Shown here: piece after piece, positions 4,895 through 23,841 of the stretch | Position numbering within the stretch: position 1 is the first letter of the stretch | Layout: each line of letters opens with the position of its first letter | Source: Dehalococcoidia bacterium | Lineage (GTDB): Bacteria; Chloroflexota; Dehalococcoidia; Bin125 | Reading direction: 5' to 3' | Assembly: GCA_963555985.3 (NCBI GenBank) | Contig: OY820591.1 | Coordinates: forward strand, 1,856,001-1,920,000 | DNA: 64,000 bases | The notes under the pieces: model-generated | Database searches by the model: none | Told to the model about the DNA's origin: nothing | The model's input: the letters and a program-made list of their open reading frames with translations, nothing else | Position numbers and translations under genes: made by a program

Positions 4895-5218
4895 CTAGGC
4901 GTCGGCGACGCTGACGACCAGTTCGTCGATGGTGGCGCCGGAGATTTCGCTCCAGACCTCGCAGATGCGGGTCATGAGGGCGACGCGGGTGTCCTGATCG
5001 ATGCCGCCGGGGACGGCGCCGCGGACGAGGGAGGTGGTGGAGAGTTCGCCGCCGCGGAAGCCGAAGCCCTGGGGGATGTCGGTGAAGCGGACTTCGCCGA
5101 CGAGGTCGAGGTCGGCGACTTCTTTGGCGACGCTGGCAAGGGCCTGGGCGAGTTGGTCACGGGTGTGTTGGGGGATTTGTCCCTCCTGCATGGTGCAGGC
5201 GAAAGTGATATCGGGCAT
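4895..5218 (-). CDS. Tautomerase superfamily protein
   Basis: Pro-1, double beta-alpha-beta size (107 aa), GFGFRGG; tandem with the preceding tautomerase. Confidence 0.65.
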   Translation of the reverse strand: MPDITFACTMQEGQIPQHTRDQLAQALASVAKEVADLDLVGEVRFTDIPQGFGFRGGELSTTSLVRGAVPGGIDQDTRVALMTRICEVWSEISGATIDELVVSVADA

Positions 5219-5308
5219 AGGCGGGGGTCTCCTGTTCAGGTGAGATTAGAGTAGCGGGCTTGGGACAGTTCAAGCTTCTGCCGCAGTTCGCCGGGATATG
5301 ATGCCGAC

Positions 5309-5947
5309 ATGGTTGTCGCACGACCCGAGGCTGAAGATGTCACCGCGCTGCTCGCGGCTCTTGGCAGCGCGCCGCTGAAACTCAGACTGCCGCCCGATTG
5401 GGTGCTGACCAACGAGAAACTACTTGAGCTTTGCAGCCTGAACGATGCCGTGCCGTTCGAGGTGGACGAGACGGGGGCGTTGATCGTGGGCTTGCCGAGT
5501 GGTCAGGCCAGCTCTTGGATCAGTCTTGAGTTCGCTGTTGCGCTGCACCATTGGATGAGCGTGGAAGCGGGCGACTTGGCCTTTGGCTCAGACGCGCTCT
5601 TCGGCTTGCCGGACGGGAGCCGACGAGTGCCCGACGCAGCCTGGGTCAGCGGCGAGCGGCTCCAGGGAATCGACATCTTCGACGGCAACGTGTGGAGCGT
5701 GACGCCGGACTTCATTGTGGAGGTTCGCTCGCTGACCGACGATATCGAGGATTTGCAGCAGAAGATGGAGCTGTGGTTGCGCAATGGCGTGCGGTTGGGC
5801 TGGCTGGTGGATCCGTTCGATCGGTGGGTGTGGGTGTATCGGCCGGGGGCCGAGGCGGTGATGTTGGAGCGCCCGCAGGAGATGTCGGACGACGAGGTGT
5901 TGCCGGGGATGGTGGTGGATCTGCGGCGGATCTGGCGTCCGGAGTAG
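5309..5947 (+). CDS. Uma2 family endonuclease, copy 2
   Basis: VPDAAW...TPDFIVEVRS...GVRLGWLVDP. Confidence 0.9.
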   Translation: MVVARPEAEDVTALLAALGSAPLKLRLPPDWVLTNEKLLELCSLNDAVPFEVDETGALIVGLPSGQASSWISLEFAVALHHWMSVEAGDLAFGSDALFGLPDGSRRVPDAAWVSGERLQGIDIFDGNVWSVTPDFIVEVRSLTDDIEDLQQKMELWLRNGVRLGWLVDPFDRWVWVYRPGAEAVMLERPQEMSDDEVLPGMVVDLRRIWRPE

Positions 5948-6066
5948 ATTGCGGCGGTGTTTGGGTTTGTTCAGTAACATTTGACCATCCGGGGGCGGGG
6001 CGGTTTTGCGCCCCTTCGCTGGACTGATCGCGACGACAGTCCGCTAGCGCCGCCACGAGCCGAACG

Positions 6067-6705
6067 ATGCCTGAAGTCGCCGTACAGCCCGCTCCGACGC
6101 CGACGATCCCGACGAACGAGGCGACGTTCATCGGCTGCCTGCGGCTCGTGATGCCTGAGGGGATGGCGCTGAGCGATGACCTGCTGCTGGAGATCGGGGC
6201 GCGGAACGAAACCTGGCGTTTCGAGTCCGACGCGGAAGGAGCGCTCCTGATTATGGCTCCTGCGGGGACCTTGAGTGGGCGGCGAGGGATGCTGATCGGC
6301 ACCCAACTTCAGAATTGGGCTGGCGCCGGAGCGGGCGGCGACGTCTTCGATGCCAGTTCGCTCTTTCGCCTGCCCGACGGCAATCGGCGCGCGCCCGATA
6401 TCGCCTGGCTCAGCCCGGAGCGATTGTCCGAAGTGGACGAAGACGATGAGGGCGTCTGGCGAGTCACACCCGACTTCGTGATTGAGATCCGCTCGCGTAA
6501 CGACGACCTATCGGAGCAACAGGCGAAGATGGAGTTGTGGATTGCCAACGGGGCGCGTCTGGGGTGGTTGATCGATCCATTTGAGGAACGTTTATGGGTG
6601 TATCGACCGGATCATGAGCCGGAGGAATTGGCGCGTCCGATACGGATCGGGGATGCGGAAGTGTTGCCGGGGTTGGATGTGGATTTGAGTCGGGTGTGGC
6701 GCTGA
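6067..6705 (+). CDS. Uma2 family endonuclease, copy 3
   Basis: APDIAW...TPDFVIEIRS...GARLGWLIDP. Confidence 0.9.
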   Translation: MPEVAVQPAPTPTIPTNEATFIGCLRLVMPEGMALSDDLLLEIGARNETWRFESDAEGALLIMAPAGTLSGRRGMLIGTQLQNWAGAGAGGDVFDASSLFRLPDGNRRAPDIAWLSPERLSEVDEDDEGVWRVTPDFVIEIRSRNDDLSEQQAKMELWIANGARLGWLIDPFEERLWVYRPDHEPEELARPIRIGDAEVLPGLDVDLSRVWR

Positions 6706-6776
6706 TTGCGGTGGTGTTCGGGTTTGTTCAGGGAAGTTTTTTCTTTGGGCGGACTCGGGAAAACGCGGGCAGGGCT

Positions 6777-7907
6777 TCATGAGGTTGATTGCTCCTCTGT
6801 TCTGGGTTGATTGATAGCGAGTTGGGGAGGGGTGTGAGAGATCGGGAGATGCGTGAGCTGGTCGGTGCGGGTGGGTAGGTCGATGCGGTGGTGGGCGTGG
6901 AAACGGCTGAGGCCGGGGGTTTCGATCATGCGTTGGTTGAGGAGTGGCCAGGTGGCGGCTGAGGTGTCGATGCCGATCCACCGGCGATTGAGTTTCTCGG
7001 CGGCGATGCAGGTAGTGGCGCAGCCGCAGAACGGATCGAGGACGATGTCGCCCTCGTTGGAGGATGCGGCGATGATGCGCTCGATCAAGGCCAGCGGCTT
7101 TTGGGTGGGGTAGCCGACTCGCTCCTTGTTGCCGGGGCCTCCGAGGATGCGGATGTCGTCCCACCAGTCGCGCAGGGGCGGGCCTTGGGCGGAGTAGCGG
7201 GACTCGCGCATTCCGGCGGGAATCTTGCCGTCGGCGACGGCCTGGCGGTATTTCCGCTCGTCGAAGATGGTGACCATGTTGCGGCTGTGGTTGGCGTTGT
7301 AGCCGCGCCGCCTGGCGCTCTCGTAGGTGCGCTTGGTGCCTTCGGTGAAGTCGCCGCGCTGGACGTTGAAGGTGTTGTCGTCGCCGCGCGCGTAGAAGAG
7401 GAGGACGTCGTGCTTGGCTTGCCATTTTTTGGCTTTGGAGGGCATACCGCGGTAGCCCCAGATGATCTCGTTGCGGAAGGCTTGTTTGCCGAAGATCGCA
7501 TCGAGCAGGGCTTTGAGGTAGTGGCTGGCGGTGGGGTCGCAGTGGAGGTAGAGAGAGCCGGTGGGCTTGAGCACGCGGTGCAGTTCGAAGAGGCGGACGC
7601 AGATGAAGGTGAGATAGGCCTGCATCGACTCGCCGTAGGCGCGACCTGCGGCGGTGACGACAGCCCAGATCGCGTGATCGGAGGTTTCGATCTGGGCGAC
7701 CCACTCCTCTTTGATGTCGTCCAGCGTCCAGATGTCGTCGAAGACGGCGCCGGCGGCGCCGGAATCGAGCGGAGCTTGCCAGTGCTTGCCGGTGTTGAAG
7801 GGGGGATCGAGGTAGATCAGGTCAATGCACTCGCTGTTGATGCCGCGGAGTACGTCGAGGTTGTCGAGGGTGAAGATGGTGCGGTTGTCGACGTTGAGTC
7901 TGGGCAT
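6777..7907 (-). CDS. Site-specific DNA methyltransferase (N6_N4_Mtase, beta class), paralog of the 1..998 gene
   Basis: Start [46 protein letters not shown]. The ORF-track N-terminal extension overlaps nuoB and is not used. Confidence 0.9.
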
Positions 7908-7966
7908 GGGATGTCCTTGGGCATATGTTCGCATGTGCTGGGCGGCTTGGCAAGAGGTTGGCGGGC

Positions 7967-8019
7967 ACCCCCCTCTGTCCCAACGGGACCGCTCCCCCCG
8001 CAGTGCGGGGGGAGCGGGG
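7967..8019 (+). repeat. REP-like palindrome, family 1
   Basis: CCCCCTCTGTCCCAACGGGAC-CGCTCCCCCCGCAGTGCGGGGGGAGCGG, with a perfect second stem. Confidence 0.75.
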
Positions 8020-8073
8020 ATTGGGCGTCGTGTATCCTTTGGAGGCCGCTTGGGCGGACGGTTCGGAGGACTC

Positions 8074-8781
8074 ATGGTCCAGCGCACGATTGATACCGGG
8101 GGAGCACCGATTCCGCTGCTTGACCCGGTGACGGATGTCGAGGACGAGCTGCGTTCGCAGTTGCTGGTCTCGACGGTGGACAAGGTGTTTGGCTGGGCGC
8201 GGCGGTCTTCGCTGTGGCCGGCGATGTTCGGGCTGGCGTGCTGCGCGATTGAGATGATTGCGACGGCGAATGCTCGCTATGACTTGGCGCGCTTCGGGGC
8301 GGAGGTGTTCCGGGCGTCGCCGCGGCAGGCGGATCTGATGATCGTGGCGGGGACGGTGACCTGGAAGATGGCTCCGCCGGTGCGGCGGATTTACTTGCAG
8401 ATGGCGGAGCCGAAGTGGGTGATCTCGATGGGGTCGTGCTCGAACATCGGGGGGCCGTTCGCGCATGGGTACTCGACGCTGCCCGGGGTGAACAACGTCG
8501 TGCCGGTGGACGTGTACGTGCCGGGCTGTCCACCGCGGCCGGAGTCGCTGCTGGCGGGGCTGATGCTGCTTCAGCAGGTGATCGACGAGGAGCACGAGCA
8601 CGGCGGTCGGCGGCGGCGGCCGGAGCCGACGGGCGACTTCTCGCGGATGCTGCCTGAGGGCGATCCGATTCGGGCGGAGCTGGAGTCGTTGTTCCCGCCG
8701 TATCTGACGGCGGACGGTCAGCCGCGCGATCGGCGCACGGGGGCGCTGCCCTACGACGAGAACTTCTTCAGCAGCCGCTAG
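8074..8781 (+). CDS. nuoB: NADH-quinone oxidoreductase subunit B
   Basis: [39 protein letters not shown]; GGAGG RBS before ATG 8074. Confidence 0.95.
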
Positions 8782-8819
8782 TCTGTTGCGGAGCCGAGGA
8801 GAGCGGAGAGGGGCGCGAG

Positions 8820-9305
8820 ATGGTGTTCGGCAAGGGTATCGCCAAGGGTCTGCTGACGGTGGTCAAGCATGTCCGCAAGGAGCCGGTGACGGTCGAATTT
8901 CCGGAGCAGGAGCGGGACATCCCTCCGCGCGCGCGGACGAACCTGGTCTGGTTCGTGGAGCGCTGCACGGGCTGCTCAACCTGCGCGCAGAGCTGTCCCG
9001 ACGGCTGCATTCTGGTGGAGACGGAGCCGCGCGAGGACGGGAGCTTCCTCGTCAACCGCTACGAGATCGATTTTCGGCTGTGCATGTACTGCGGTCTGTG
9101 CGCGGAGGCGTGTCCGTATGAGGCAATCCAGGTGGGCGGGTCGTACACGAACGTGGTGACGAATCCGAATCGGCTGTACAAGGACAAGGACGACCTGATC
9201 GAGTTGGCGAACGAGTACCTCGAAGGTCACGACTGGGTGTATCCGAACGGCCAGCGGGCGGTGGAGCAGACGGTGCATCCGACGGAGCGCCGGCAGCATC
9301 ACTAG
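8820..9305 (+). CDS. nuoI: NADH-quinone oxidoreductase subunit I (2x[4Fe-4S])
   Basis: VTVEFPE, CTGCSTCAQSCP and CMYCGLCAEACP. Confidence 0.9.
   Translation: MVFGKGIAKGLLTVVKHVRKEPVTVEFPEQERDIPPRARTNLVWFVERCTGCSTCAQSCPDGCILVETEPREDGSFLVNRYEIDFRLCMYCGLCAEACPYEAIQVGGSYTNVVTNPNRLYKDKDDLIELANEYLEGHDWVYPNGQRAVEQTVHPTERRQHH
9228..9305 (+). repeat. 78-bp direct repeat, copy 1 (3' end of nuoI)
   Basis: 77/78 identical to 10045-10122. Confidence 0.95.
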
Positions 9306-9976
9306 GGCCGCCGCGCCTCCTCAGCCAACTGCCAGACGTAGGACATGTCCACGGTCAACCCGTCTAACACGTCCTCACCGGATAGGGTTGCAGGGCGTTC
9401 CAGCAGTTCCGGGTCAAGCGCCGGGCGGTACACCCAGACAGTCAGCGCGTCCGGATCAATCAGCCAGCCGAGGCGCGCACCGAAGTGTATCCAGAGCGCC
9501 ATCCGGTCCTGCTGCTTGGCGACATCATCGGAGGGCGATTTGATCTCGACTACGAAATCGGGGCAGACCGCCCAATAGCCGCTGCCTCCTCGATGCTCGG
9601 CAGGCAGTTCGTCGTAGCGCTCGGGGCTGATCCATGAGAGGTCGGGTTCCATGCGGGGCGGCTCTTGCGGACGGCCGCCCAGCCAGTAGCCGCCGCTGGA
9701 GGTTCGCGCGCGCCCGCCGCCGCCAGCTGCCCGCCAGACTCCGAGATAGCGTGCGAGTTCCAACTCGATGTCCGAGGTGACGCCGCCCGAGCCCATGTTG
9801 ATCACCAACTCCCCATCGCAGCCGACCTCGAAGCGCCAGCCTGGATGGTCGGCGTCGAGGCGCTGCTGGAGGTCATCGTCGAATGCACCGTTGATCGGAG
9901 GCGGAATCCGAATCAGCGCGGGTACCGCAGGCAGCTCATGCGCCGTCGGCGCGGGCATCGTTGCGGTCTGAGGCAT
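9302..9976 (-). CDS. Uma2 family endonuclease, copy 4
   Basis: EPDLSWIS...CPDFVVEIKS...GARLGWLIDP; its stop overlaps the nuoI stop at CTAG. Confidence 0.9.
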   Translation of the reverse strand: MPQTATMPAPTAHELPAVPALIRIPPPINGAFDDDLQQRLDADHPGWRFEVGCDGELVINMGSGGVTSDIELELARYLGVWRAAGGGGRARTSSGGYWLGGRPQEPPRMEPDLSWISPERYDELPAEHRGGSGYWAVCPDFVVEIKSPSDDVAKQQDRMALWIHFGARLGWLIDPDALTVWVYRPALDPELLERPATLSGEDVLDGLTVDMSYVWQLAEEARRP

Positions 9977-10044
9977 TGGCGTGCCGTCCTCCCGTTGGGG
10001 ACAGTCTATCGGCGGGCGCTCTCGGTGGTCATCGAGTATCTCGG

Positions 10045-10122
10045 CACGACTGGGTGTATCCGAACGGTCAGCGGGCGGTGGAGCAGACGGTGCATCCGAC
10101 GGAGCGCCGGCAGCATCACTAG
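10045..10122 (+). repeat. 78-bp direct repeat, copy 2 (orphan nuoI 3' fragment)
   Basis: Encodes HDWVYPNGQRAVEQTVHPTERRQHH*, with one synonymous change versus nuoI. Confidence 0.95.
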
Positions 10123-10820
10123 CCGGAGTCGTCTGAATCCTCGGCGTCCTCGTCGGCGAAGGCCCAGACTTCGGCCAGATGTACGGTCAAGCCATTGAGC
10201 ACGTTCTCGCCGGAGAGCGTGGCGGGACGCTCTAGCCGTTCGGGCTCCTGACTCGGTCGGTAAATCCAGACCGTTTGTTGGAGCGGGTCAACGAGCCAGC
10301 CGAGTTGGGCGCCGAAGAGCAGCCACTCTTGCACTCGTTGTTGCTGCGCCGGGAGCGAGTCGGACGGCGATCGCACCTCGATCACGAAGGTGGGGCACAG
10401 ACTCCAGAATCCGCGCTTAGGGCGATTGGCGCGCGGGGTCGCTTCCAGCAGCTGCGGGCTGATCCAGGACACGTCCGGTGCGCGTGTCTTGCTGCCTAAG
10501 TCGGGGTGATAGACCTTGTAGGTACCATCGGATTCGCGAGCTCGCCCTCCTCCTCCCGTGGCACGCCAATTGCCCACCTGCCGCATTAATTCGCCGGCGA
10601 TGTCAGAGCTGTCTCCTCCAGCGATCATCCGCACCTCCAGTTCGCAATCCGCTCCGAGTTCGATCTTCCAGCCTTCGTTAAGCCGATTGAGTCGCTCCAG
10701 TTCCTCGTCGGTGGGAGGGGCGGGCAACTGAATGCGCAGGCAGACATCGCGCAATTCGGGCGCGACGAGCAGTGCATCGGCAGTGGTCTCCGTGGTCGGG
10801 CTTGCTTGGGCGGTGGTCAT
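10119..10820 (-). CDS. Uma2 family endonuclease, copy 5
   Basis: APDVSWIS...CPTFVIEVRS...GAQLGWLVDP; its stop overlaps CTAG of the orphan nuoI fragment. Confidence 0.9.
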   Translation of the reverse strand: MTTAQASPTTETTADALLVAPELRDVCLRIQLPAPPTDEELERLNRLNEGWKIELGADCELEVRMIAGGDSSDIAGELMRQVGNWRATGGGGRARESDGTYKVYHPDLGSKTRAPDVSWISPQLLEATPRANRPKRGFWSLCPTFVIEVRSPSDSLPAQQQRVQEWLLFGAQLGWLVDPLQQTVWIYRPSQEPERLERPATLSGENVLNGLTVHLAEVWAFADEDAEDSDDSG

Positions 10821-13392: not shown

Positions 13393-15960
13393 ATGGCGAC
13401 GATCACGATCAATGGACGGGCGGTTGAGGCTGCGGTTGGCGCTCCGCTGGTCGAGGTCATCAAGAACGCCGGTTTTCCGATCTCGAACCTGTGCTACCTG
13501 GACGGGCTGCCGCCGTATGCCGGCTGCCGCACCTGCGCGGTCGAGGTTGAGGGGATGCGCGGGTTGCCGCTGTCGTGCACGACGACGGTGATGGACGGGA
13601 TGGTCGTGCGCACCGATACGCCGGCCGTGACGGAGATGCGGCAGGAAGTGCTGGCGGTAATTCTGGCCAACCACTCCGACCGCTGCCTCACCTGCCATCG
13701 CGTGGAGCACTGCCGCACCGGTGAGATCTGTCTACGCGACAACGAGGTCACGCACCGCTGCGTAACCTGCTCGAAGAACTACCGCTGCGAGTTGCAGACC
13801 TCCTGCGACGCGGCTGATGTGGGGCGAGCGAACGTTGAGCCGTACATCGACGAGGCGCGGACGTATTACCGCTATCAGCAGCCGGAGCCGGATCGGGCGA
13901 ATCCGTTCTTTGAGTTCGACCCGCAGATGTGCATCATCTGCACGCGCTGTGTGCGGGCCTGCGACGACCTGCGGCATACGACGGCGATCACGCTGGCCGG
14001 ACGCGGCTTCTCGACCCGGATCGCATTCGGTGCGGGTGGTCAGATTGACGAGTCGAACTGCGATTTCTGCGGGGCGTGCGTAGATGTGTGCCCGACGGCG
14101 ACGCTGATGGAAGCGCCGAACAAGTGGGTGGCGCGTCCGGATCGGTGGGTGACGACGACCTGCACCGAGTGCTCGATGGGCTGCACGATCCAGATGGGTG
14201 TACGCGACGGTCGCGGCGTGCAGGTACGGCCGGGCAACGGGAACGATGTCTCGCGCAATCAGATCTGCGTGCGCGGCCGCTTCGGCTACGACCAGACGCG
14301 GGATCGGGATCGGTTGCGGTCGGCCTGGATTGGTCGGGGCGAGGATGCGTTCGAGCAGGACGGCGATGCCGTGGTCGAACACGCCGCCGCCGCCTTGACC
14401 GCGATCCTTGAAGCGCATGGCTCGTCCGCGGTGGGTATGCTCGGATCTGGTCAGTCCACGCTTGAGGAGCTGTATGCGCTGCGAACGCTCGCCGAGCGCC
14501 TGGGCGTGACGAATCTTGATTCGTCGTTCGGCGCGGTCACGGCTGCGATCGGCTCAGCGTTGCAGGATGCATTCGGTTCCGAGCATCTGCCCTCGCGCCT
14601 GACCTCGGTCGAATCCGCAGATCTGATTGTCGCGATCGGCGATGACATTTCCGCCTCGAACAATGTGCTCGGTGTGCGGATCAAGGATGCGGTGGCGAAT
14701 AACGGCGCTTCGCTGATCTCGATTTCTTCGCGCCGCAATCCGCTCGCCGACTATGCCGTTGACGATGAGCACGCGCTGCATCCCTCCGACGGCGACTTGG
14801 CGGGCGTTTCGCAGGCGCTGGCTGCGTCGCTCTTGCGCGACCTGGACGTTCGTACCTCGCTCTCTGAGCTCGAGGGGCTTGGCGATGTTACGGGTTCGCG
14901 CGACGGTCTCGGCGCGGCGGCGACGACGCTTACGCGGCGGCGCGGGGAAGCGGTAGCGGTAGTGGTCGCGCCCTCGCGCGGCCATGCAGGCCAGGCGGGG
15001 GCGCAGGTTCGGGCGGCGGCGAATTTGGCGATTGCGCTCGCGGGAGCGGACGCGGCTCCGCAGGCGCTGCACGTGCTGCCGCCCGAGGCGAACTCGGTCG
15101 GTCTGCGCGATCTCGGTATTCGTCCCGGTGACGACGGCCTCGATGCCGCCGGCATGTTGGCGGCCGCTCGCAGCGGCGGACTGAAGGCGCTGATCGTCGC
15201 GCGGGACAATCCGGTCCTGCTCCATTCCGACCGCGACGGGACTCTTGCCGCCTTAGCCGCGCTTGACCTGCTGTTGGTGATTGACGAAGTGGAGACTGAA
15301 ACCGTCGCCGCGGCGACGCACGTGCTGCCCGATGTCTCGGCGTTCGCCAAAGATGGTCATGTCGCCAACGCCGACCGTCAGATCCTGCGGCTGCGAGCGG
15401 CGACCGCTGAGCAGCGCGGCGGACGCAGCCTGAGCGCATGGCTCGCCGAGCTGTCGAGCCGCCTCGAGGCGATTGACGGCGCGCCTGAGACTCCCGCGAA
15501 TCCGCGCGAGGCGCGAGCGGCGATCGCGCGAAGCGACAGCCGCTACGCCGCGCTCACGGAGGTTGGCACGACCCAGTCGCGGATGAGTCCCAACGGGGCG
15601 GCGACGCAGCGAATGCTGGCCGTGCCTGCAACCGGGGCGGTTGGCGGTCTGACGCTGTTGAGCGGGCGTGATCTCTACACGGATCGGCTCTCGGCGGCGC
15701 GCGGCGACGCTGACGCCGACCTGCTGCATCGCGGTGAGGGCCTTCAGATTCACCCGGCCGACGCAGCCGAGCGCGGGATCGAAAACGGCGCGGCGGTGCG
15801 GGTCAGCGCGAACGGCACGCAACTCGAGCTGGCGGCCGAGGTGACCGAGGACGTGCCGCAAGGCGCGGTCTGGGCGTCGATTTTGGCCCAGCGCGGGGCT
15901 GTGCAAGCGTTCTTGAGCGGCGAGCGCTTGGTTGGGGTAGGGGTCGCGCCCGCCGGGTAA
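13393..15960 (+). CDS. NuoG/FdhA-like molybdopterin-oxidoreductase-fold Fe-S protein
   Basis: N-terminal 2Fe-2S (CY..GCRTC..C), HxxxCxxC, CIICTRCVRAC, CDFCGACVDVCP, CTECSMGC...ICVRGRFG and a C-terminal molybdopterin-dinucleotide-type domain (IHPADA..RGI). No obvious catalytic Cys/Sec. Confidence 0.8.
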   Translation: MATITINGRAVEAAVGAPLVEVIKNAGFPISNLCYLDGLPPYAGCRTCAVEVEGMRGLPLSCTTTVMDGMVVRTDTPAVTEMRQEVLAVILANHSDRCLTCHRVEHCRTGEICLRDNEVTHRCVTCSKNYRCELQTSCDAADVGRANVEPYIDEARTYYRYQQPEPDRANPFFEFDPQMCIICTRCVRACDDLRHTTAITLAGRGFSTRIAFGAGGQIDESNCDFCGACVDVCPTATLMEAPNKWVARPDRWVTTTCTECSMGCTIQMGVRDGRGVQVRPGNGNDVSRNQICVRGRFGYDQTRDRDRLRSAWIGRGEDAFEQDGDAVVEHAAAALTAILEAHGSSAVGMLGSGQSTLEELYALRTLAERLGVTNLDSSFGAVTAAIGSALQDAFGSEHLPSRLTSVESADLIVAIGDDISASNNVLGVRIKDAVANNGASLISISSRRNPLADYAVDDEHALHPSDGDLAGVSQALAASLLRDLDVRTSLSELEGLGDVTGSRDGLGAAATTLTRRRGEAVAVVVAPSRGHAGQAGAQVRAAANLAIALAGADAAPQALHVLPPEANSVGLRDLGIRPGDDGLDAAGMLAAARSGGLKALIVARDNPVLLHSDRDGTLAALAALDLLLVIDEVETETVAAATHVLPDVSAFAKDGHVANADRQILRLRAATAEQRGGRSLSAWLAELSSRLEAIDGAPETPANPREARAAIARSDSRYAALTEVGTTQSRMSPNGAATQRMLAVPATGAVGGLTLLSGRDLYTDRLSAARGDADADLLHRGEGLQIHPADAAERGIENGAAVRVSANGTQLELAAEVTEDVPQGAVWASILAQRGAVQAFLSGERLVGVGVAPAG

Positions 15961-16256
15961 GGCCGTGAGGTCGCTGCGGCAATGACGGAGCGGAGTTTCG
16001 CACAAGTCTCCTGGGCTGGAACGTGGTACAAATTGGAGAGCGAGGGTGAATGCCCCGAGCGGCGCGGTCGGCGCGGTTTGCATCGGCTGCACGATCAATG
16101 TGTTGCTGACAGGGGGGCGTGGGAACAGATCGGAATGATTGTTCATCGCTCGATTGCAGCGTCTATCGATCGGGAACAACACGCGCGCCCACTTCAGTAC
16201 AAACGCGCAACGCGGCATGAATTTGCAGGTGACTAGAAAGAGAGCAGGTGCAAGAG

Positions 16257-17624
16257 ATGACCGAATTCGAGATGAGCGACAGCACGCCAGGGGAGTCGGC
16301 ACAGGCCAGGCACTACGTGTTTGTGGACGGGCCGAGCGTTGACGGGACCCTGGGTCGAGTCCTGAACGCGCAACCCGATCTGCGCACCCGCCCGGACTGG
16401 CACGGCCTGATTCCCTTTGTCCGGCGTGAGTGGGGCGAGGCTGATGCGGTCGCCACCTTCGTGATGTGGAGTCCGGGCAATCCGGGCTTCATGAACTTTC
16501 TGGAACGGGCCGGGTTCCGGCTGGATGTGGCCGACCGCTTGATCGATCCGGACGGGATCGTCCGGATCATCACCGAGCGGATTGAGCAGATCGAAGCCGA
16601 TCTCGGTCCGGACGACGGATACGACGTGATGGTCGCCACGCACAACCGGCGGCTGATCGGACAACTGACCTCGGTCGCGCCCTCGGCGGAACGGATCGGT
16701 CTGCTGGGTTTCGACGAATGGCTGCCGGACGATCAGGAGCTTGAGGAACGGATCGAGGTGTTTGATCTGGAAACGGACGCGCGCTTGTTCCGCGTCGACC
16801 TTGGCCGTGGTCAGAGCGAGGAGGACGGTCCCGCTCGTCCCGAGGTTGAGTCAGGCATCGTGGGGCCGGAGCTGCGGGCGCGGACGGCGATGGAGTTCGA
16901 GACTCCGGTGCCCAGAGCGCGGCCGATCGTCTCTCCGCCGCGAACTGCCAGCCCGCCGTTCCCGGATGAGATCGAGAGCGTGGTGGCGCCGGCGGCAGGC
17001 CCATTGCCGCCGCTGGAAGAACCGGACGAGCCGCCGCCGGGTCCTGCGCGCGACTTTTATCTGCTCGTCGACGGACGCAGCATCGACCAGGAGCTCGGCG
17101 AGATCATCGGTGAGAAGCCGCAGGCCGACTCACGTCCGCGTTGGGAGCTGGTCTACCGTTTCGCCATGCAGCGCTCTCGCGCCGAACACCGACAGATTCG
17201 CGCCCTGTTCGTGCATATTGGACCGGGTCACGCGGGGTTCAAGCGTGCGTTGCAGCATTTGGGATACCGCACGATGCCGGTGATGCCCGACGGCTACAAC
17301 ACCGCACGCTCGGTGGTCGAGGAAGCCGTCTGCCGGGTGCTGGAGGCTCGCGCCCTGCGCGGTGAGGAGGGGCAACCGGCGCCGGATGTGATGGTGATTG
17401 CGCACAGCGTCAGCGTGTTCGAGCGGCTCAGCGCGCTCCCCGACTCGGGGCAGCGGCTGATGGCGCTGGGCTTTCCCGAGCGGATGCCGGTCGACATCTA
17501 TCCCCGGATCGAACGCTTCGACATTGAATACGACGCGGCTGCGTTCCTCTCACCGCTGCCGCGGATGCAAGGCGTCGATGTCGACGACTTCGATCCCGAT
17601 GCGGAGTTGGATCGGCTCTTCTGA
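16257..17624 (+). CDS. Tandem NYN/LabA-like (PIN-fold) domain protein with Pro-rich linker, active sites degenerate
   Basis: Two repeats VFVDGPSVD..LG..L...P...RPDW and LLVDGRSID..LG..I...P...RPRW, each ending in FDLE/FDIE; start codon uncertain (16248, 16257 or 16272). Confidence 0.7.
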   Translation: MTEFEMSDSTPGESAQARHYVFVDGPSVDGTLGRVLNAQPDLRTRPDWHGLIPFVRREWGEADAVATFVMWSPGNPGFMNFLERAGFRLDVADRLIDPDGIVRIITERIEQIEADLGPDDGYDVMVATHNRRLIGQLTSVAPSAERIGLLGFDEWLPDDQELEERIEVFDLETDARLFRVDLGRGQSEEDGPARPEVESGIVGPELRARTAMEFETPVPRARPIVSPPRTASPPFPDEIESVVAPAAGPLPPLEEPDEPPPGPARDFYLLVDGRSIDQELGEIIGEKPQADSRPRWELVYRFAMQRSRAEHRQIRALFVHIGPGHAGFKRALQHLGYRTMPVMPDGYNTARSVVEEAVCRVLEARALRGEEGQPAPDVMVIAHSVSVFERLSALPDSGQRLMALGFPERMPVDIYPRIERFDIEYDAAAFLSPLPRMQGVDVDDFDPDAELDRLF

Positions 17625-17639: not shown

Positions 17640-18773
17640 CTAGAGATCGAACGGGAGCGCGGCGCCGATCCCGAAGGTGACAGCCGTAGCCAAGAGACCG
17701 ACTGCGACGGATCGGGCCGCGGCATAGAGTGGATGCCGGCTGGTGATGAAGCTGCTGAGCACGCCGGCGACGCCGAGCAGTGTGGCGCAGGCTGCGACGG
17801 CGGCGATCAGCGTCCACCAGCCGGGCGTCCAGCCGGCGAGCGCCGCCACCAGGAATGGGATCACGGGCACGATCGCGCCGAGTGAGAAGGCCGTGAAACT
17901 GCCGGCGGCAGCGCGAACGGGGGAACCCAGGTCGGACGGATCCAGGCCGAGCTCTTCACGCGCGAGCGTATCGAGCGCCGTCGCCGGATCGGCCATGAGT
18001 TCGTCGGCGACTTGCTCGGCGAGGCTCTGCGAAAGTCCTTTGCGACGATAGATTCGCACCAATTCGGCGCGTTCCTCGGCGGGGTCGAGGAGCAGTTCGT
18101 CGCGCTCGTGCGCGATCTGCTGTTCCTGCAGCTCGGCCTGGCTGCGCACTGAGATGTACTCGCCGGCCGCCATCGAGAATGCGCCCGCGAGCCAGCCGCC
18201 AATCCCGGCAACGAGGATCACATCGGAGTCGATGGCGACGCCCGCAACCCCGGCCACGAGCGCCAGGTTCGAGACGATCCCGTCGTTGAGACCGAAGAGC
18301 GTCGCGCGGAACGCGCCGGCAGAGCTTTGCCCGGCCAGCGCCTCCTCATGTCCGATCTGATCGTCAATGCTGGCCAGGGTCGCGCGGTGCTCGCGTTCCT
18401 CATCCGCCAGTGTGCCCGCGTCGGGGTCGGCTTCGTAGCGGCGAATGTCCGTCAGTTCCTCGCGCCGAAGCTGATCGATGACAAAGCCGAGCCCGCCGAA
18501 GCGCGCCCACCAAGCCATCAGCCGGCGTCGAAACGACGGCGGCGGCGGGTTGAGCAGCAGGTGATCGGAGCCGAGCAACGCGCACCAGTGCGCTGCATGT
18601 TCACGCTCGGAATCCGCCATCTCGCGGAGTGCTTGCGCGAGCTTCGGCTCGGTCCGGCGGGACAGTTGGTCGTAGAGCCAGGCCGCGCCGAGCTCGTCGA
18701 CCACCATTTCGGTGACCTTCTGCCGGCGCTCTTCGGTGAGCGGAGCTTGCGGTCTTGGCGGCGTGACGACCAT
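17640..18773 (-). CDS. VIT1/CCC1 family metal transporter with N-terminal rubrerythrin-like domain
   Basis: E..H helices, FGLNDGIVSN, SMAAGEYISVRSQ and TLAREELGLDP. Confidence 0.9.
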   Translation of the reverse strand: MVVTPPRPQAPLTEERRQKVTEMVVDELGAAWLYDQLSRRTEPKLAQALREMADSEREHAAHWCALLGSDHLLLNPPPPSFRRRLMAWWARFGGLGFVIDQLRREELTDIRRYEADPDAGTLADEEREHRATLASIDDQIGHEEALAGQSSAGAFRATLFGLNDGIVSNLALVAGVAGVAIDSDVILVAGIGGWLAGAFSMAAGEYISVRSQAELQEQQIAHERDELLLDPAEERAELVRIYRRKGLSQSLAEQVADELMADPATALDTLAREELGLDPSDLGSPVRAAAGSFTAFSLGAIVPVIPFLVAALAGWTPGWWTLIAAVAACATLLGVAGVLSSFITSRHPLYAAARSVAVGLLATAVTFGIGAALPFDL

Positions 18774-18970
18774 GACTCGATTGTAGGCGGGGATCAGAGT
18801 CGGAATTGACAGGCGGAAGTCAAACTTTGGTATCCAGCCGGACTCCCCTGCAAAGTGAGAGGCTCGAATGTGACGGACTGTACGCGCGAGTTGGACGAGG
18901 GGCTACGACATTCGCGGAATCCGCGCGATGATCGGGATGAGCGCGCGACCGGATCGGGGAGGGCTTAGAC

Positions 18971-19840
18971 ATGCTCACGCTGGGATTGCCGAAAGGTTCG
19001 TTGGAAGCGCCCACGCTGGAGCTGTTCCGGCGGGCGGGGTTCGATATTTCTACCGCATCGCGTTCCTACTTCCCCCAGATCGACGACGAAGGCATCACCT
19101 GCGTGATGTTTCGCGCGCAGGAGATGGCCCGTTACGTTGAGGATGGCGTGGCGGACTGCGGGATCACGGGTCACGACTGGGTGATGGAGACCGGCGCGGA
19201 CGTGATCGAGGTGGCGGAGCTGAACTACTCGCGCGCAACCTCGCGTCCGGCGCGCTGGGTGCTGGCGGTACCGGCAGAGAGCGGCGTGACCGAAGTCAGC
19301 CAGCTTGAGGGTGGCGTGATCGCTACAGAGCTGGTCGCAACCACGCGGGCGTATTTCGAGGCGCAAGGGATCAACGTCAAGGTTGAGTTCTCCTGGGGCG
19401 CGACTGAGGTCAAGGCGCGGATCATCGACGGCATCGTGGACATTACCGAGACCGGTTCGAGCCTGCGCGCGAACAACCTGCGCGTGATTGCGGAGGTGCT
19501 CCAGAGCACGACGCGGCTGATCGCCAACCGCGACGCCTGGGCCGATCCGGGGCGGCGGGAGAAGATCGAGGCGATCCACACGCTCCTGCAAGGCGCGATC
19601 GCGGCGCGGTCGAAGGTGGGGCTGAAGCTGAACACACCGCGCGCGAGTTTGCAGGATGTGCTCGCTGTGATCGGCAAATTCGGCGAGCACGCGCCGACGA
19701 TTTCCCCCTTGATCGACGAGGGTTGGGTCGCGCTGGAGATCATTCTCGACGAGCGGGTGGAACGGGAGATGATTCCTGAGTTGCGAAGGGCGGGCGCGTC
19801 GGGCTTAGTCAGCTACCCGTTGAACAAGGTGATTTCGTGA
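18971..19840 (+). CDS. hisG: ATP phosphoribosyltransferase, long form
   Basis: LGLPKGSL, RAQEMARYVEDG..DCGITG, FSWGATEVK, IVDITETGSSLRANNL and a C-terminal regulatory domain. Confidence 0.96.
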   Translation: MLTLGLPKGSLEAPTLELFRRAGFDISTASRSYFPQIDDEGITCVMFRAQEMARYVEDGVADCGITGHDWVMETGADVIEVAELNYSRATSRPARWVLAVPAESGVTEVSQLEGGVIATELVATTRAYFEAQGINVKVEFSWGATEVKARIIDGIVDITETGSSLRANNLRVIAEVLQSTTRLIANRDAWADPGRREKIEAIHTLLQGAIAARSKVGLKLNTPRASLQDVLAVIGKFGEHAPTISPLIDEGWVALEIILDERVEREMIPELRRAGASGLVSYPLNKVIS

Positions 19841-19859
19841 AAGGGAGCTCGGCGGCAGG

Positions 19860-20993
19860 CTACTGATCCTGCTCGTCCTGTTCGGCGGAAGGTTCGGGTT
19901 CCACGGACGGAGGTTGGGGCCGAAAGCGTTCCGGGACGTTATGACGAGGGTCACCCTTGCGGAAATCGCTCCAACAGTCGATGTGACCTTCGCTGGTGAT
20001 GGCGCAGGCGGCCTGGTCTCCGAAGAGGCGGGTGTAGGTGCGGGCAGCAGTGGTCTCGCGGTCGGGGCCGCCTTCGAAGAGCAAGGTGAAGCGGATGGGC
20101 CAGGATTGGAAGCGGATAATGCGGGGCGGGCAGTGGTCGATGTGCGCGGGGATGACGTGGTAGCACCAGTGCAGGGTCTGGCGGCATTGGAGCGAGCCAT
20201 CGACGATGGCACAGCCTTGAGCGGCCAGGATGTGGACATTGCGGAAGAGTTGGGTGTAGGGCGGCGGCGGACCGGGGGCGGTACGGGATTGGGCGGTGCG
20301 GCAGCGCACATCTTCCTGAGCGGTGACGCCGCAGAAGCCGTTGCCGCTGGAGGCGATCCGGACGAAGGGGCCGGCGTCGGAGACGAATTGGTCGATGGTC
20401 AGGTCGCCCCAGCAGGTCGTGCGTCCTTCGGAGTCGAGAGCGCAGAATTCGCGGCCGGTGCTGATGAGATCGGTGAAGTTGTTATAGGCGGGAGCGGGAC
20501 TGCGCGGTAGCGGCAGTCCCCAGCAGGCGATCTCGCCCTCAATCGTGCGGGCGCAGGCGTAGTGCCGCCAGGGATGCACGACGATCTGGACGAGGTCGGT
20601 GCGGTCGGGAGGCAGGAGTTGGGCGAGGCCGGCGAGATGGAGATCGGCTTCGGGGTCGCGAGCCAGGACGTCCTCAATGGCAGCCCGGAGATAATCGTAA
20701 CCAGCGCCCCAGCAGATAGGGGCTCCCTCGGAGGTGATGGCGCAGGCGTCGGCGGGACCAAGGCTGAGGTCGGTGAAGGAGCCTTGGGGGACGTCACGAA
20801 CGAGGGGGATGTCGAAGCCCCAGCAGGCAATCTCGCCGGCGTCGGTGAGGGCGCAGGCGGCGGTCGGACCGATGGCGATTTCGACGGGGGTATCGGCGCG
20901 GGCGGGGACGATAGAAAGCAGGGCGAGGAACACAAGAAGCGCAAGCGCGGCGAGCGGCGCGAGGAGGTGGAACACGGTGCGGGTGGGCTGCAT
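19860..20993 (-). CDS. Secreted RCC1/BLIP-II-like beta-propeller repeat protein, copy 1
   Basis: Signal peptide and repeated ACA(L/I)TxxGxxxCWG units. Confidence 0.75.
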   Translation of the reverse strand: MQPTRTVFHLLAPLAALALLVFLALLSIVPARADTPVEIAIGPTAACALTDAGEIACWGFDIPLVRDVPQGSFTDLSLGPADACAITSEGAPICWGAGYDYLRAAIEDVLARDPEADLHLAGLAQLLPPDRTDLVQIVVHPWRHYACARTIEGEIACWGLPLPRSPAPAYNNFTDLISTGREFCALDSEGRTTCWGDLTIDQFVSDAGPFVRIASSGNGFCGVTAQEDVRCRTAQSRTAPGPPPPYTQLFRNVHILAAQGCAIVDGSLQCRQTLHWCYHVIPAHIDHCPPRIIRFQSWPIRFTLLFEGGPDRETTAARTYTRLFGDQAACAITSEGHIDCWSDFRKGDPRHNVPERFRPQPPSVEPEPSAEQDEQDQ

Positions 20994-21061
20994 GGGGCAC
21001 GCTTTGGCGGTGATTGGAGAATGGTAGCTGAGGGCAAGCGGTCAAGAGTGAGTCAGAGACG

Positions 21062-21145
21062 GTGGAGCCGGAGATGATTCCTGAATTGCGCCGGGCGGGC
21101 GCGTCGGGGTTGGTCAGTTATCCGTTGAACAAGGTGATTTCGTGA
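21062..21145 (+). repeat. Orphan copy of the hisG 3' end (direct repeat of 19757-19840, offset 1305 bp)
   Basis: Encodes VEPEMIPELRRAGASGLVSYPLNKVIS*. There are 9 nt differences in 84 bp, 8 of them synonymous, and homology continues into the downstream gene. Confidence 0.95.
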
Positions 21146-21164
21146 AAGGGAGCTCGGCGGCAGG

Positions 21165-22292
21165 TTACTGATCCTGCTCGTCCTGTTCGGCGGGAGGTTC
21201 GGGTTCCACGGACGGAGGTTGGGGCCGAAAGCGTTCCGGGACGTTGTGGCGAGGGTCGCCCTTGCGGAAATCGCTCCAACAGTCGATGTGACCTTCGGTG
21301 GTGATGGCGCAGGCGGCCTGGTCTCCGAAGAGGCGGACGTATTCGCGGGAGGCGGTGGTTTCACGGTCGGGTCCGCCTTCGAAGAGCAAGGTGAAACGGA
21401 TGAGCCAGGATTGGAAACGGATGAGGTCGGGTGGGCAATACTCGACGTCTGGAGAGAAGTAGTAGGAACACCAGTGGTGGGTCTGGCGGCAATGCAGTGA
21501 GCCGTCATCGAACACCGCGCAGCCTTGCGCGCCGATGACGTGGACGTTGCGGAATATCTGGGCATAGGGCTGTGGCGGGCCCGGCGCGGTGGGGGAATCG
21601 TGGGTGCGGCAGCGCACCTCGCCTTGGGCGGTGACGCCGCAGAATCCGTTGCCGCTGGCGGCGATGCGGACAAAGGGGCCGGGGTCGGAGACGAATTGGT
21701 CGATGGTGAGGTCGCCCCAGCAGGTCGTGCGTCCTTCGGAGTCGAGGGCGCAAAATTCTCGACCGGTGCTGATCAGCTCGGTGAAGTCGGCGCTGGTGGG
21801 GGCGGGGCTGCGCGGCAGGGGCAGGCCCCAGCAGGCGATCTCGCCCTGGATGGTGCGTGCGCAAGCGTAGTGTCGCCACGGGTGCACGACGATCTGGACG
21901 AGGTCGGTGCGGTCGGGAGGCAGGAGTTGGGGCAGGCCGCTGAGTTGGAGGTCGGCTTCGGGGTCGCGGGCGAGAATGGAGTCGATGCTGGCTCTGACAT
22001 AGGCGTAACCGGCGCCCCAGCAGGCGGCGGTTCCCTCGGAGGTGATGGCGCAGGCGTCAGCGGGACCGAGACTGAGGTCGGTGAACACGCCCTCGGGCAC
22101 GTCGTGGACGAGGGGGATGTCGAAGCCCCAGCAGGCGATCTCGCCAGCGTCGGTGAGGGCGCAGACGGCGGTGGGGCTGATCTCGATATGGACGGGCGTC
22201 TCGGCGCGAGCAGGGGCAATGAGGAACAGGACGAGGAGAACAAGCGCGACGAGCGGCGCGAGGGCGCGGAAGACAGTGAAGACAGGCGGCAT
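21165..22292 (-). CDS. Secreted RCC1/BLIP-II-like repeat protein, copy 2
   Basis: Collinear paralog of 19860-20993. Confidence 0.75.
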   Translation of the reverse strand: MPPVFTVFRALAPLVALVLLVLFLIAPARAETPVHIEISPTAVCALTDAGEIACWGFDIPLVHDVPEGVFTDLSLGPADACAITSEGTAACWGAGYAYVRASIDSILARDPEADLQLSGLPQLLPPDRTDLVQIVVHPWRHYACARTIQGEIACWGLPLPRSPAPTSADFTELISTGREFCALDSEGRTTCWGDLTIDQFVSDPGPFVRIAASGNGFCGVTAQGEVRCRTHDSPTAPGPPQPYAQIFRNVHVIGAQGCAVFDDGSLHCRQTHHWCSYYFSPDVEYCPPDLIRFQSWLIRFTLLFEGGPDRETTASREYVRLFGDQAACAITTEGHIDCWSDFRKGDPRHNVPERFRPQPPSVEPEPPAEQDEQDQ

Positions 22293-22401
22293 CGGGCGCT
22301 TTCGCAGTGGTTAGGCGCAAGATAGAGGAGGACGAATCGGCGAGAACGTCAGCAATCGTCGGCTAGGATCGCTGCACGAGACAGCTTGATTGGAATACGA
22401 A

Positions 22402-23841
22402 ATGGCCCTGCGAACCCCCGCCGAATACGTCGAATCGCTGCGCGACGACCGCGAAATCTGGTACCGCGGCGAGCGCGTCGACGACGTGACCACGCATCCG
22501 ACGATCAGCAAGGCCGTCAAGCACGCCTGCATCGATTACGAAATGGCGGAGTCGGACGAGTACCGCGAGCTCGCTACCTACGAGGAAGACGGCGAGAGCT
22601 ACAGCGCCTACTACCGCATCCCGCGCTCGACCGACGACCTGCTCAACCGCTCGAAGCTGATCGAGGCCGCCACCGCCGAAGGCGACACGCTGGTCGTGCT
22701 GATCAAGGAGATCGGTACCGACGCGCTCTTCGCGCTGCTGGCGGTGACCGCCGAGTTCGAGGATCCGGTCTATTTCGAGCGCGCGCAGGCCTTCTACGAG
22801 CACTGCCGCCGCAACGATCTGGCGCTGGCGGTGGCGCAGACGGATGTCAAGGGCGACCGGATCAAGCGCCCCTCGCAACAGTCCGACCCCGACATGTACC
22901 TGCGTGTGGTCGAACGCCGCCCGGACGGCGTAGTCGTGCGCGGCGCGAAGGCGCACACCTCGGTCGTGACCAACACCAACGAGGTGATCGTCCTGCCCAC
23001 CCGCGCGATGGGCGCGGACGAGGGCGACTGGTCGATTGCGTTCGCGCTGCCCGTGAACACGCCGGGGCTGCGCTTCATCGCCTCGCCTTTCGGCGACAAC
23101 GCCAGCCACGAGGGCGAGCGCCCGATCTCGGCGGTGCGCAAGATGATGGAGACGATCACAATCTTCGACGACGTGTTCGTGCCCAACGAGCGCATCTTCC
23201 TCGACGGCGACACCGACGCGGCGGGACAACTCGCGCTGACCTTCGTCGAGTACCACCGCTTTACCGCCGTCTCGTACAAGCTGCCTTTGATCGATGCCTT
23301 GGGCGGCTGCGCGGCGCTGGCGGCGGACTACAACGGGATCATCGGCGTCTCGCATGTGCGCGAGAAGTTCATCGATCTGATCTCATACGCAGAGACGACC
23401 CGCGCCCTGATCGAGAAATCCGCCGAACGCTGCATCGCCAAGCCCAACGGTCAGGTCGCGCCCGATCCGATGACCGTCAACATCGCCAAATCGCACTTCG
23501 CGCACGGCTACCACGAAGCGGTGCAGCACGTGCAGGAGATCGCAGGCGGGATTCTCGTCACTGGACCGGGCGACGAGGACTGGGAGCACGAAGAGTTGCG
23601 CCCGTTCCTCCAGAAATACCTGGCCGGACGCGACGGCGTGGACGGCGAACAGCGGATGCGCTTGCTCAACTTCATCCGTGATCTGACCTCATCCGACTAC
23701 GGCGCATACCAGGAAGTCTTGGCGATTCATGCGGAGGGGTCGTTGCAAGCCGAGCGCTTGCAGGTCTTCCGCGCGTTCAACGAGAACGGCGGCGCGCGCC
23801 GAGTGATGCGGCTCGCAGGTAGAATGGCGGGCGTAAGGTAG
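22402..23841 (+). CDS. 4-hydroxyphenylacetate 3-hydroxylase / 4-hydroxybutyryl-CoA dehydratase family flavoprotein
   Basis: EYVESLRD..W..GERV.DVTTHP, AQTDVKGDR, VVRGAKAH and HAEGS. Confidence 0.88.
   Translation: MALRTPAEYVESLRDDREIWYRGERVDDVTTHPTISKAVKHACIDYEMAESDEYRELATYEEDGESYSAYYRIPRSTDDLLNRSKLIEAATAEGDTLVVLIKEIGTDALFALLAVTAEFEDPVYFERAQAFYEHCRRNDLALAVAQTDVKGDRIKRPSQQSDPDMYLRVVERRPDGVVVRGAKAHTSVVTNTNEVIVLPTRAMGADEGDWSIAFALPVNTPGLRFIASPFGDNASHEGERPISAVRKMMETITIFDDVFVPNERIFLDGDTDAAGQLALTFVEYHRFTAVSYKLPLIDALGGCAALAADYNGIIGVSHVREKFIDLISYAETTRALIEKSAERCIAKPNGQVAPDPMTVNIAKSHFAHGYHEAVQHVQEIAGGILVTGPGDEDWEHEELRPFLQKYLAGRDGVDGEQRMRLLNFIRDLTSSDYGAYQEVLAIHAEGSLQAERLQVFRAFNENGGARRVMRLAGRMAGVR

Follow-up and report, generated by a model that had tools for sequence, protein, structure and literature searches.

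Organization of the hisG-HpaB locus

The 64,000-nt stretch of Dehalococcoidia DNA analysed here (the window, within which all positions are given unless a contig is named) sits on a 3.145-Mb contig. It carries an intact hisG gene and, at the 3' end of this gene, a unit that is present twice. Each unit consists of the last 28 codons of hisG (including the stop codon), a 19-nt spacer and a convergent gene with RCC1 repeats, and the two copies are offset by 1305 nt. The first hisG end is part of the intact gene, and the second is an orphan. The RCC1-repeat genes, which form the cargo of the units, were designated g1 (unit 1) and g2 (unit 2). In this study, we found that the two hisG ends differ almost only at synonymous sites and that g1 and g2 group with different relatives, the latter at marginal significance. 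These results suggest that the two units may be alleles that evolved apart and were later joined by recombination.

The repeat spans approximately positions 19756 to 21050 and shows 83.5% identity over 1264 nt in blastn. The 19-nt spacer is identical behind both hisG ends, and the g1 and g2 proteins are 81% identical. Both proteins have hydrophobic, signal-like N-termini, and they are predicted to be secreted. A comparison of g2 with PDB sequences gave no match at E <= 0.01. A preliminary description of this DNA had reported the two-unit repeat, and its coordinates and counts proved correct in every detail.

The features of the locus are listed in Table 1. The identity to the sister genus is 82-85% for hisG and 88-95% for the HpaB homologue, a HisG cluster designated P0040 is 96% identical to the HisG of the window, and the last 24 residues of the HisG protein are invariant in 19 of the 23 sister-genus genomes shown. 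Between 19700 and 22450, a sigma-70 promoter scan found no promoter-like site, and a terminator scan found one terminator-like site, which is the chance level.

Table 1. Positions of the genes and other features around the repeated unit.
Feature	Position	Strand	Remarks
VIT1/rubrerythrin-type gene	17640..18773	-	Pfam PF01988; conserved left flank, family-wide synteny
hisG, ATP phosphoribosyltransferase, long form, intact	18971..19840	+	Pfam HisG, HisG_C
Functional hisG end (27 codons + stop)	19757..19840	+	Part of intact hisG
Low-divergence tract, unit-1 copy	19816..20031	.	Partner 21121-21336; 6 differences in 216 nt; presumed gene-conversion or crossover tract
g1, RCC1-repeat (beta-propeller type) gene, unit-1 cargo	19860..20993	-	PF13540, E 2.5e-11; 377 aa
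g1 upstream region	20994..21061	.	About 50-65 nt homologous to g2 upstream region; unit junction at about 21046-21061
Orphan hisG end (27 codons + stop), without gene body before it	21062..21145	+	In-frame TGA at 21029-21031
g2, diverged allele of the RCC1-repeat gene, unit-2 cargo	21165..22292	-	PF13540, E 2.6e-13; 375 aa
g2-HpaB intergenic region, right island end	22293..22389	.	Between divergent genes; homologous to the spacer between RCC1-type gene and HpaB of relatives
HpaB-family 4-hydroxyphenylacetate 3-hydroxylase homologue	22390..23841	+	Pfam PF11794, PF03241; conserved right flank

Divergence of the two hisG ends

Of the 84 nt of the hisG end, 9 differ between the two copies. Eight of these differences are synonymous, and the one non-synonymous difference (Arg/Pro) lies in the third of the 28 codons. 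The differing codons, given as functional/orphan, are GAA/GAG, CGG/CCG (Arg/Pro), GAG/GAA, CGA/CGC, AGG/CGG, GGC/GGG, TTA/TTG, AGC/AGT and TAC/TAT. The Nei-Gojobori method, with 20 synonymous sites and 61 non-synonymous sites and with eight and one differences at them, respectively, gave a synonymous divergence (dS) of 0.57 and a non-synonymous divergence (dN) of 0.017. For the whole g1/g2 gene pair, the same method gave a dS of 0.46 and a dN of 0.118. Third codon positions differ in 7 of 27 codons of the tails, compared to 103 of 317 in the body of g1/g2, and only 2 of the 54 first and second positions differ in the tails. The non-coding upstream parts of the two units showed 46 matches and 19 mismatches (19/65, 29%), with 12 gap columns, which is a significantly higher divergence than the 9/84 of the tails (Fisher p = 0.0056). 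Since the dS of the tails matches that of the cargo, whereas the non-coding upstream parts have diverged more, there is moderate evidence that the tail pair resembles a coding gene pair of the age of the cargo pair and not non-coding DNA of that age. The proposal of the preliminary description that both ends evolved as working gene ends is thus supported by the tail dS and dN, the cargo dS and the Fisher test.

These numbers bear on the explanation with the simplest structure. In this case, illegitimate recombination of sister chromosomes, at a short stretch of microhomology, would have duplicated the unit in tandem within the lineage, and the orphan would have decayed in place. The excess of synonymous differences would then be due to chance and to occasional gene conversion from the functional copy. 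We calculated the probability of the observed pattern with a model in which the functional copy accepts only synonymous changes and the orphan accepts all changes, using 12 mutation spectra that varied in transition and GC-to-AT bias. The probability of at most one non-synonymous change among nine was 0.0035-0.019, and it fell to between 1e-4 and 1e-3 when all mutations were placed in the orphan alone. The dS of the tails is as high as that of the cargo, and therefore no recent conversion has reset the tail. Neutral DNA of the units differs at 29% of the aligned positions, and this also argues against decay of the orphan in place.

Several features of the tails gave no further guidance. Polarising the nine changes with outgroup tails from the sister genus placed about five on the functional branch and about three on the orphan branch, with one ambiguous, and this was too uncertain as a guide to which hisG end is older. 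The base composition of third codon positions gave no hint of a foreign tail, as each tail has 6 codons of 27 with A or T in the third position. Retention of the orphan by a gene on the opposite strand was also rejected for the window genome: no real gene overlaps the orphan, g2 stops 19 nt beyond it, and a 206-aa antisense open reading frame (ORF) over the orphan is an out-of-frame shadow of g2. GAA, CGA, AGG and TTA, which stand at four of the nine differing codons in the working hisG end, correspond in the orphan and in nearly all relatives to GAG, CGC, CGN and a Leu codon ending in G, which is TTG in the orphan and mostly CTG in the relatives.

Read support for the tandem arrangement

The tandem arrangement was examined with Logan unitigs from four public runs, which represent at most three samples of one study and are possibly the assembly's own source. 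Read-table depth and uncovered bins were left unused as evidence, since the records are unitigs. Junction unitigs from three runs, at 20799-21151 (run X2, depth 24.6), 20800-21151 (run X3) and 20594-21164 (run X4), matched the window with no differences, and they connect the 5' end of g1 across the junction and through the whole orphan end. A unitig at 18900-19846 covers hisG with its functional end, and another at 22116-22566 links the 5' end of g2 to HpaB, both again with no differences. In X2, the depths of the three stretches were similar (24.9 for the hisG unitig, 24.6 for the junction and 28.3 for the g2-HpaB unitig). Because no single record spans both units, their linkage rests on the junction together with the long contig. 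The preliminary description had named an assembly chimera of two strains as the result that would refute it, and this explanation is countered by the unitigs of an independent build that bridge the junction.

Mosaic tract and minor haplotype

All nine differences between the hisG ends fall within 19757-19815. The next 216 nt (19816-20031) are nearly identical between the units, and beyond them the divergence returns to about 20%. This tract begins in hisG, with its last 8 codons, continues through the spacer and covers the final 57 codons of the cargo gene, in which the dS is 0.085 compared to 0.46 for the whole gene. The near-identity of the tract indicates that at least one conversion or crossover between the units occurred after their origin.

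In run X5, a second, minor haplotype accounts for a depth of 3.3 of 8.5 and has the unit junction as well. Between 20988 and 21112, it differs by eight substitutions, which are clustered in 65 nt around the junction, and both sides are identical. Two of the eight substitutions affect the orphan, where the minor haplotype has GAA CGG (Glu-Arg), as in the functional end, in place of GAG CCG. As the orphan of the minor haplotype carries the functional-type codons, the change to Pro probably came late in the orphan, and an older orphan may have differed from the functional end at synonymous sites only.

Phylogeny of the cargo genes

A search of a large protein collection gave 39 proteins, of which 7 that were identical to or contained in genome-derived rows were dropped. 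The resulting cargo tree has 56 rows, with 30 further metagenomic homologues added and with g1 and g2 kept under their genome names. In this tree, g2 is sister to P0009 (support 100/97). g1 lies within a clade of 26 rows (99/93) that contains P0002, P0004 and P0005, its nearest relatives at 79-81% identity, and that excludes g2. The best tree in which g1 and g2 were forced into one clade was 41.7 log-likelihood units worse, with p = 0.036 in the approximately unbiased (AU) test. The prediction that each cargo copy clusters with a different relative was thus borne out, though marginally. A simple tandem duplication within the lineage would leave the two copies mutually closest, and this was not found, although the result is only moderately strong. 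A scan of metagenome contigs with g1 gave 15 pattern matches, none of which is a relative.

The hisG-HpaB gap in related genomes

We compared the locus in 65 genomes of the family: the window genome, 37 of the sister genus and 27 of eight other genera. The order VIT1, hisG, HpaB and a Lon-N-like gene is kept at 10 of 13 family loci, those with both hisG and HpaB; two loci of genus g9 gave no HpaB match, and one further family locus is cut at a contig end. In the six other genera with HpaB, this gene follows hisG after 57 to about 400 nt. The RCC1-type gene was found in the window genome and in 26 of the 37 sister-genus genomes, always in the gap between hisG and HpaB, and in none of the 27 genomes of the eight other genera.

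The gap is a hotspot for accessory genes, with at least seven arrangements in the 37 sister-genus genomes. It is empty in six genomes. It holds the RCC1-type gene alone in three (G021, G060 and G069), a gene for a secreted PPC-domain protein of about 860 aa (designated Y) alone in three others, and Y followed by the RCC1-type gene in 18, one of which has two RCC1-type copies. In three genomes (G049, G055 and G068), the gap contains the RCC1-type gene, an orphan hisG end and Y. Other cargo is present in two genomes, namely a Uma2 putative restriction endonuclease gene (L092:2614-3306) in one and a NERD plus UvrD-like helicase gene (L088:2466-4378) in the other, and in the remaining two the gap is cut by a contig end. 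A single hisG end is present in 34 of the 37 sister-genus genomes and in the other genera.

The codon at which the orphan begins varies between genomes. It is codon -28 in the window genome, about -44 in G068, about -57 in G055 and further upstream in G049, and this variation speaks against a fixed recombination site. The displaced end in G068 differs from the working end at 12 synonymous and 14 non-synonymous sites. It has the look of an older, decayed relic, as opposed to the ratio of 8:1 in the window genome, and it is an example of what decay in place probably leads to.

Neither the RCC1-type gene nor Y gives a tree that agrees with that of the flanks, and the content of the island has therefore been exchanged between species. 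For the RCC1-type gene, G049 and G068 form a sister pair (99/96), yet they belong to different flank clades. G006 and G021 are paired in the RCC1-type gene tree (100/100) and are far apart in the flank tree. Cargo has also been lost: comparison of G060 and G069 with G041 showed that Y was deleted between direct repeats of 10-11 nt, situated just past the hisG stop codon and about 60 nt before the start of Y, and that hisG was left intact.

Y and hisG overlap in the sister genus. The Y ORF runs antisense and codon-aligned through the last 38 hisG codons, and the convergent overlap of 116 nt is kept in 21 of 21 genomes in which Y adjoins hisG. In one example (L023, G013:C6:3000-13500), hisG is at 7611-8477 on the minus strand and Y at 5112-7727 on the opposite strand. 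The stop codon of Y is formed by a Ser codon of hisG (TCA) read on the opposite strand, and in G049, G055 and G068, which have a displaced hisG end, Y still terminates at this stop, which there belongs to the orphan. Constraint on the orphan by the Y frame was considered and rejected: read in this frame, the G068 differences comprise 4.5 synonymous and 21.5 non-synonymous changes, and no constraint is shown. The tandem RCC1-type genes behind Y in G046 (L078, G046:C26:82000-101000, oriented 14816-17387) have no duplicated flank between them. They share 72% nucleotide identity, and one of them is on a very long branch.

Proposed joining of two alleles without a recombinase

We favour the explanation that two alleles, each composed of a hisG end and its cargo, evolved apart and were later joined by recombination without a recombinase, and we assign it a probability of roughly 0.55. 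We infer a meeting of the units from different lineages, a one-sided-homology route and an order of events as follows. Each cargo allele would carry the hisG end beside which it evolved, the units having diverged in separate lineages while each hisG end was still part of a working hisG. Recombination would then have brought both units into one chromosome, and a dedicated recombinase need not have acted. Homology, in hisG or in the cargo gene, could have anchored one side, and an illegitimate join between the upstream region of the cargo and hisG codon -28 could have made the other. The outcome would be an intact hisG together with a displaced end of 28 codons that no longer has a use. Later, gene conversion or crossover would have homogenised approximately 216 nt. 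By the same route, a donor with the RCC1-type gene alone and a recipient with Y alone, both of which exist, would yield the arrangement of the three relatives with a displaced end.

The boundaries of the units agree with this proposal. Few bases are shared at the junction, and the unit ends showed no terminal inverted repeats. No integrase or transposase was found with Pfam among 21 ORFs at 6-36 kb of the window, and no search was made for a trans-acting recombinase encoded elsewhere; the earlier statement that no integrase is nearby therefore stands. The observation made in the preliminary description is confirmed, and its interpretation is supported in its core, that both ends evolved as working ends. 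It had also proposed a type of gene capture, which is not new, and the arrival of one unit at the site of the other, in which either unit may be the immigrant and either the resident.

Several points weigh against the joining of two alleles from different lineages. The test on the tails counts only nine differences, and the orphan branch alone carries about one non-synonymous and two or three synonymous changes, which is not significant. The pattern was selected from a very large scan, so that chance will yield some such cases. The nearly identical tract of 216 nt requires a second event, and the minor haplotype is known from one unitig of low depth. When the tree was limited to sequences from 24 genomes, g1 and g2 were mutually nearest and formed a weak clade (63/82). 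The AU value is marginal, and the group was chosen after the tree was seen. The genus of the window is represented by one genome in the set, and the genomes compared at the locus belong to other genera.

Alternative explanations

Some of these points favour the tandem duplication within the lineage described above. It offers the simplest structure, a single head-to-tail repeat of 1305 bp with a junction at a few shared bases, and gene conversion between the units, which it invokes, is evident in 19816-20031. The pairing of g1 and g2 among genome-derived sequences and the few changes on the orphan branch are what it would lead us to expect. It is opposed by the low probability of the tail pattern under decay in place, by first and second codon positions that have hardly changed at a dS as high as that of the cargo, by the divergence of the neutral DNA, by the AU test, and by the decayed end in G068. 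We consider this explanation unlikely.

Coding-type divergence of both tails would also arise without foreign DNA if the whole of hisG had been duplicated with its cargo long ago, both hisG copies had long been functional, and a late deletion had left the final 28 codons of the second. The unit junction could equally be the scar of such a deletion, and deletions between short repeats are known at this locus from the loss of Y in G060 and G069. However, purifying selection would have had to act on a superfluous hisG until a dS of about 0.5 was reached. No second hisG match was found at thresholds of E <= 1e-30 and E <= 1e-50 in 36 of the 65 family genomes, those searched with hisG. The clustering of g1 and g2 with different relatives would also be unexplained unless each relative had lost one copy. 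This history is less probable still.

A site-specific integrative cassette, with a site at the 3' end of hisG, a replacement gene end and a recombinase encoded elsewhere, would account for the stacking of varied cargo (RCC1-type, Y, Uma2, and NERD plus UvrD-like genes) behind a single gene in several species. Such a system would also suit the other 3' ends that are repeated in the window genome, in some cases in three or four copies. On the other hand, the start of the duplicated hisG segment differs by genome, the boundaries are without a conserved core or inverted repeats, and a scan of 30 kb, which reached 13 kb beyond the left end and 14 kb beyond the right end of the island, revealed no integrase. 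Most cargo-bearing sister-genus genomes have no orphan end, including the 21 with Y next to hisG, and the deletion of Y used a lineage-specific repeat of 10-11 nt. We regard a cassette of this kind as improbable. Two strain variants of one locus strung in tandem by the assembly are hardly credible, even though the assembly is of the metagenome type with an estimated contamination of 7.5% and one run contains a second haplotype, because unitigs from three runs join g1 to the orphan without a difference, the flanking unitigs are at equal depth, the window lies on a 3.1-Mb contig, and a collapsed bubble cannot create the unit junction.

Other orphan gene ends in the genome

The genome of the window was scanned for further orphan 3'-end copies, using ungapped pairs only and a crude ORF filter. 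At least five loci were found on contig C1. The first has three copies, at 523793, 526770 and 529865 (span 523793-529917). The pair at 978667/979438 (span 978667-979485) differs at 6 synonymous and 1 non-synonymous sites. The locus at 2505318 (span 2505318-2515008) has two ungapped copies, with synonymous to non-synonymous ratios of 3:1 and 2:4, and one gapped copy. The ratio is 5:3 for the pair at 2766469/2765711 (span 2765711-2766557) and 3:4 for the pair at 623239/622480 (span 622480-623300). Several copies are thus richer in synonymous differences (6:1, 3:1 and 5:3), and others are not (3:4 and 2:4). These orphan ends are 15-23 codons long, some occur in three or four copies, and the cargo between them includes large secreted proteins and a PIN-like ORF, among others.

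It is a tentative possibility that the lineage routinely collects accessory genes behind the 3' ends of core genes, by a recombinase-free, homology-anchored process that duplicates the end each time. If this is true, the hisG locus, the at least five other loci and the three displaced ends of the sister genus would be products of one lineage-wide process, and the collected cargo would consist of surface-protein alleles, nucleases and restriction genes. Arrays of surface-protein alleles would then be built by import from other lineages and not by local duplication.

The window also contains a cluster of Uma2-family putative nuclease genes at 5309-10820, with members at 6067-6705, 9302-9976 and 10119-10820 (Pfam E 1e-28 to 5e-30). 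Another similar ORF, at about 5309-5947, is indicated solely by a repeat of 66.6% identity, spaced by about 760 nt. The region of the cluster also holds a gene for an N6/N4 DNA methylase (6777-8183).

The hisG case has its own internal control: a small piece of non-coding DNA gives both the age and the type of a recombination event, and the displaced gene end appears to retain the mark of the purifying selection under which it once evolved. Two adjacent 'paralogues' of a secreted protein that evolves rapidly can thus be stacked alleles from different lineages and not local duplicates, and this alters how tandem surface-protein genes in the genomes of uncultured symbionts may be read.

Comparison with known systems

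Like ordinary tandem duplication with concerted evolution, the hisG locus shows a head-to-tail repeat, a microhomology junction and a conversion tract. It differs in that a non-coding copy of a gene end has diverged like coding DNA and that the cargo copies form no clade in the tree (p-AU 0.036).

Integrase-driven islands have a recombinase gene within or adjacent to them and a fixed att core. No such gene was found in the 30 kb scanned, and the orphan ends begin at different codons in different genomes. Integron cassettes have attC-type inverted repeats and intI, but the unit ends showed no inverted repeats, and the scanned region contained no integrase. Some genomic islands integrate into the 3' ends of tRNA or tmRNA genes and bring a replacement end with them. 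Dehalococcoides is said to carry ssrA-specific islands with integration at the 3' end and a replacement end, as reportedly described by McMurdie et al. in 2011. These islands are from the same bacterial class, and they too are tandem cassettes behind one gene, bounded by copies of the gene end. Unlike them, with their site-specific integrase, fixed-length repeat and RNA gene, the hisG locus involves a protein gene, a repeat of variable length and no integrase that was found.

Homology-facilitated illegitimate recombination occurs in natural transformation of Acinetobacter and Streptococcus. A one-sided anchor and a join at a few bases would give the junction seen here, with no recombinase. In contrast, the cases known from these bacteria usually delete recipient DNA and do not duplicate it, and the process is not known from this phylum.

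The closest match is 'insertion with long target duplication', as defined by Furuta, Abe and Kobayashi (2010, Nucleic Acids Res 38:2428, PMC2853133). By this definition, the insert is shorter than 20 kb, the direct repeats are longer than 30 bp and single-copy in a relative, and mobile-element genes are absent. Such insertions are described for a large number of bacteria, most of them competent, and the paper leaves their mechanism open. Set against this definition, the insert at hisG is about 1.2 kb, and the direct repeat comprises 84 nt of hisG, or about 275 nt when the conserved tract is counted. In relatives of the sister genus and other genera, it occurs as a single copy. The duplication is long and of variable length, no integrase, transposase or other mobile element was found with it, and some of the published repeats also overlap the 3' end of a gene. 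The hisG case therefore fits insertion with long target duplication and is not a new kind of system; integrase-free gene capture at a 3' end is already in print.

The differences are of three kinds. The published screen was for restriction-modification genes, and the cargo here is a secreted RCC1-repeat gene, which concerns the criterion of the screen and not the rearrangement. The insert at hisG is a diverged allele of its neighbour, so that it looks like a tandem duplication. The repeats given as examples in that screen are mostly near-identical (for example, 44/46), whereas here they have diverged at synonymous sites. An earlier source on such insertions, Nobusato et al. 2000, is reportedly reference 37 of the 2010 account by Furuta and colleagues. 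The series of 37 relatives, with at least seven arrangements of one gap, provides material for how insertion with long target duplication happens.

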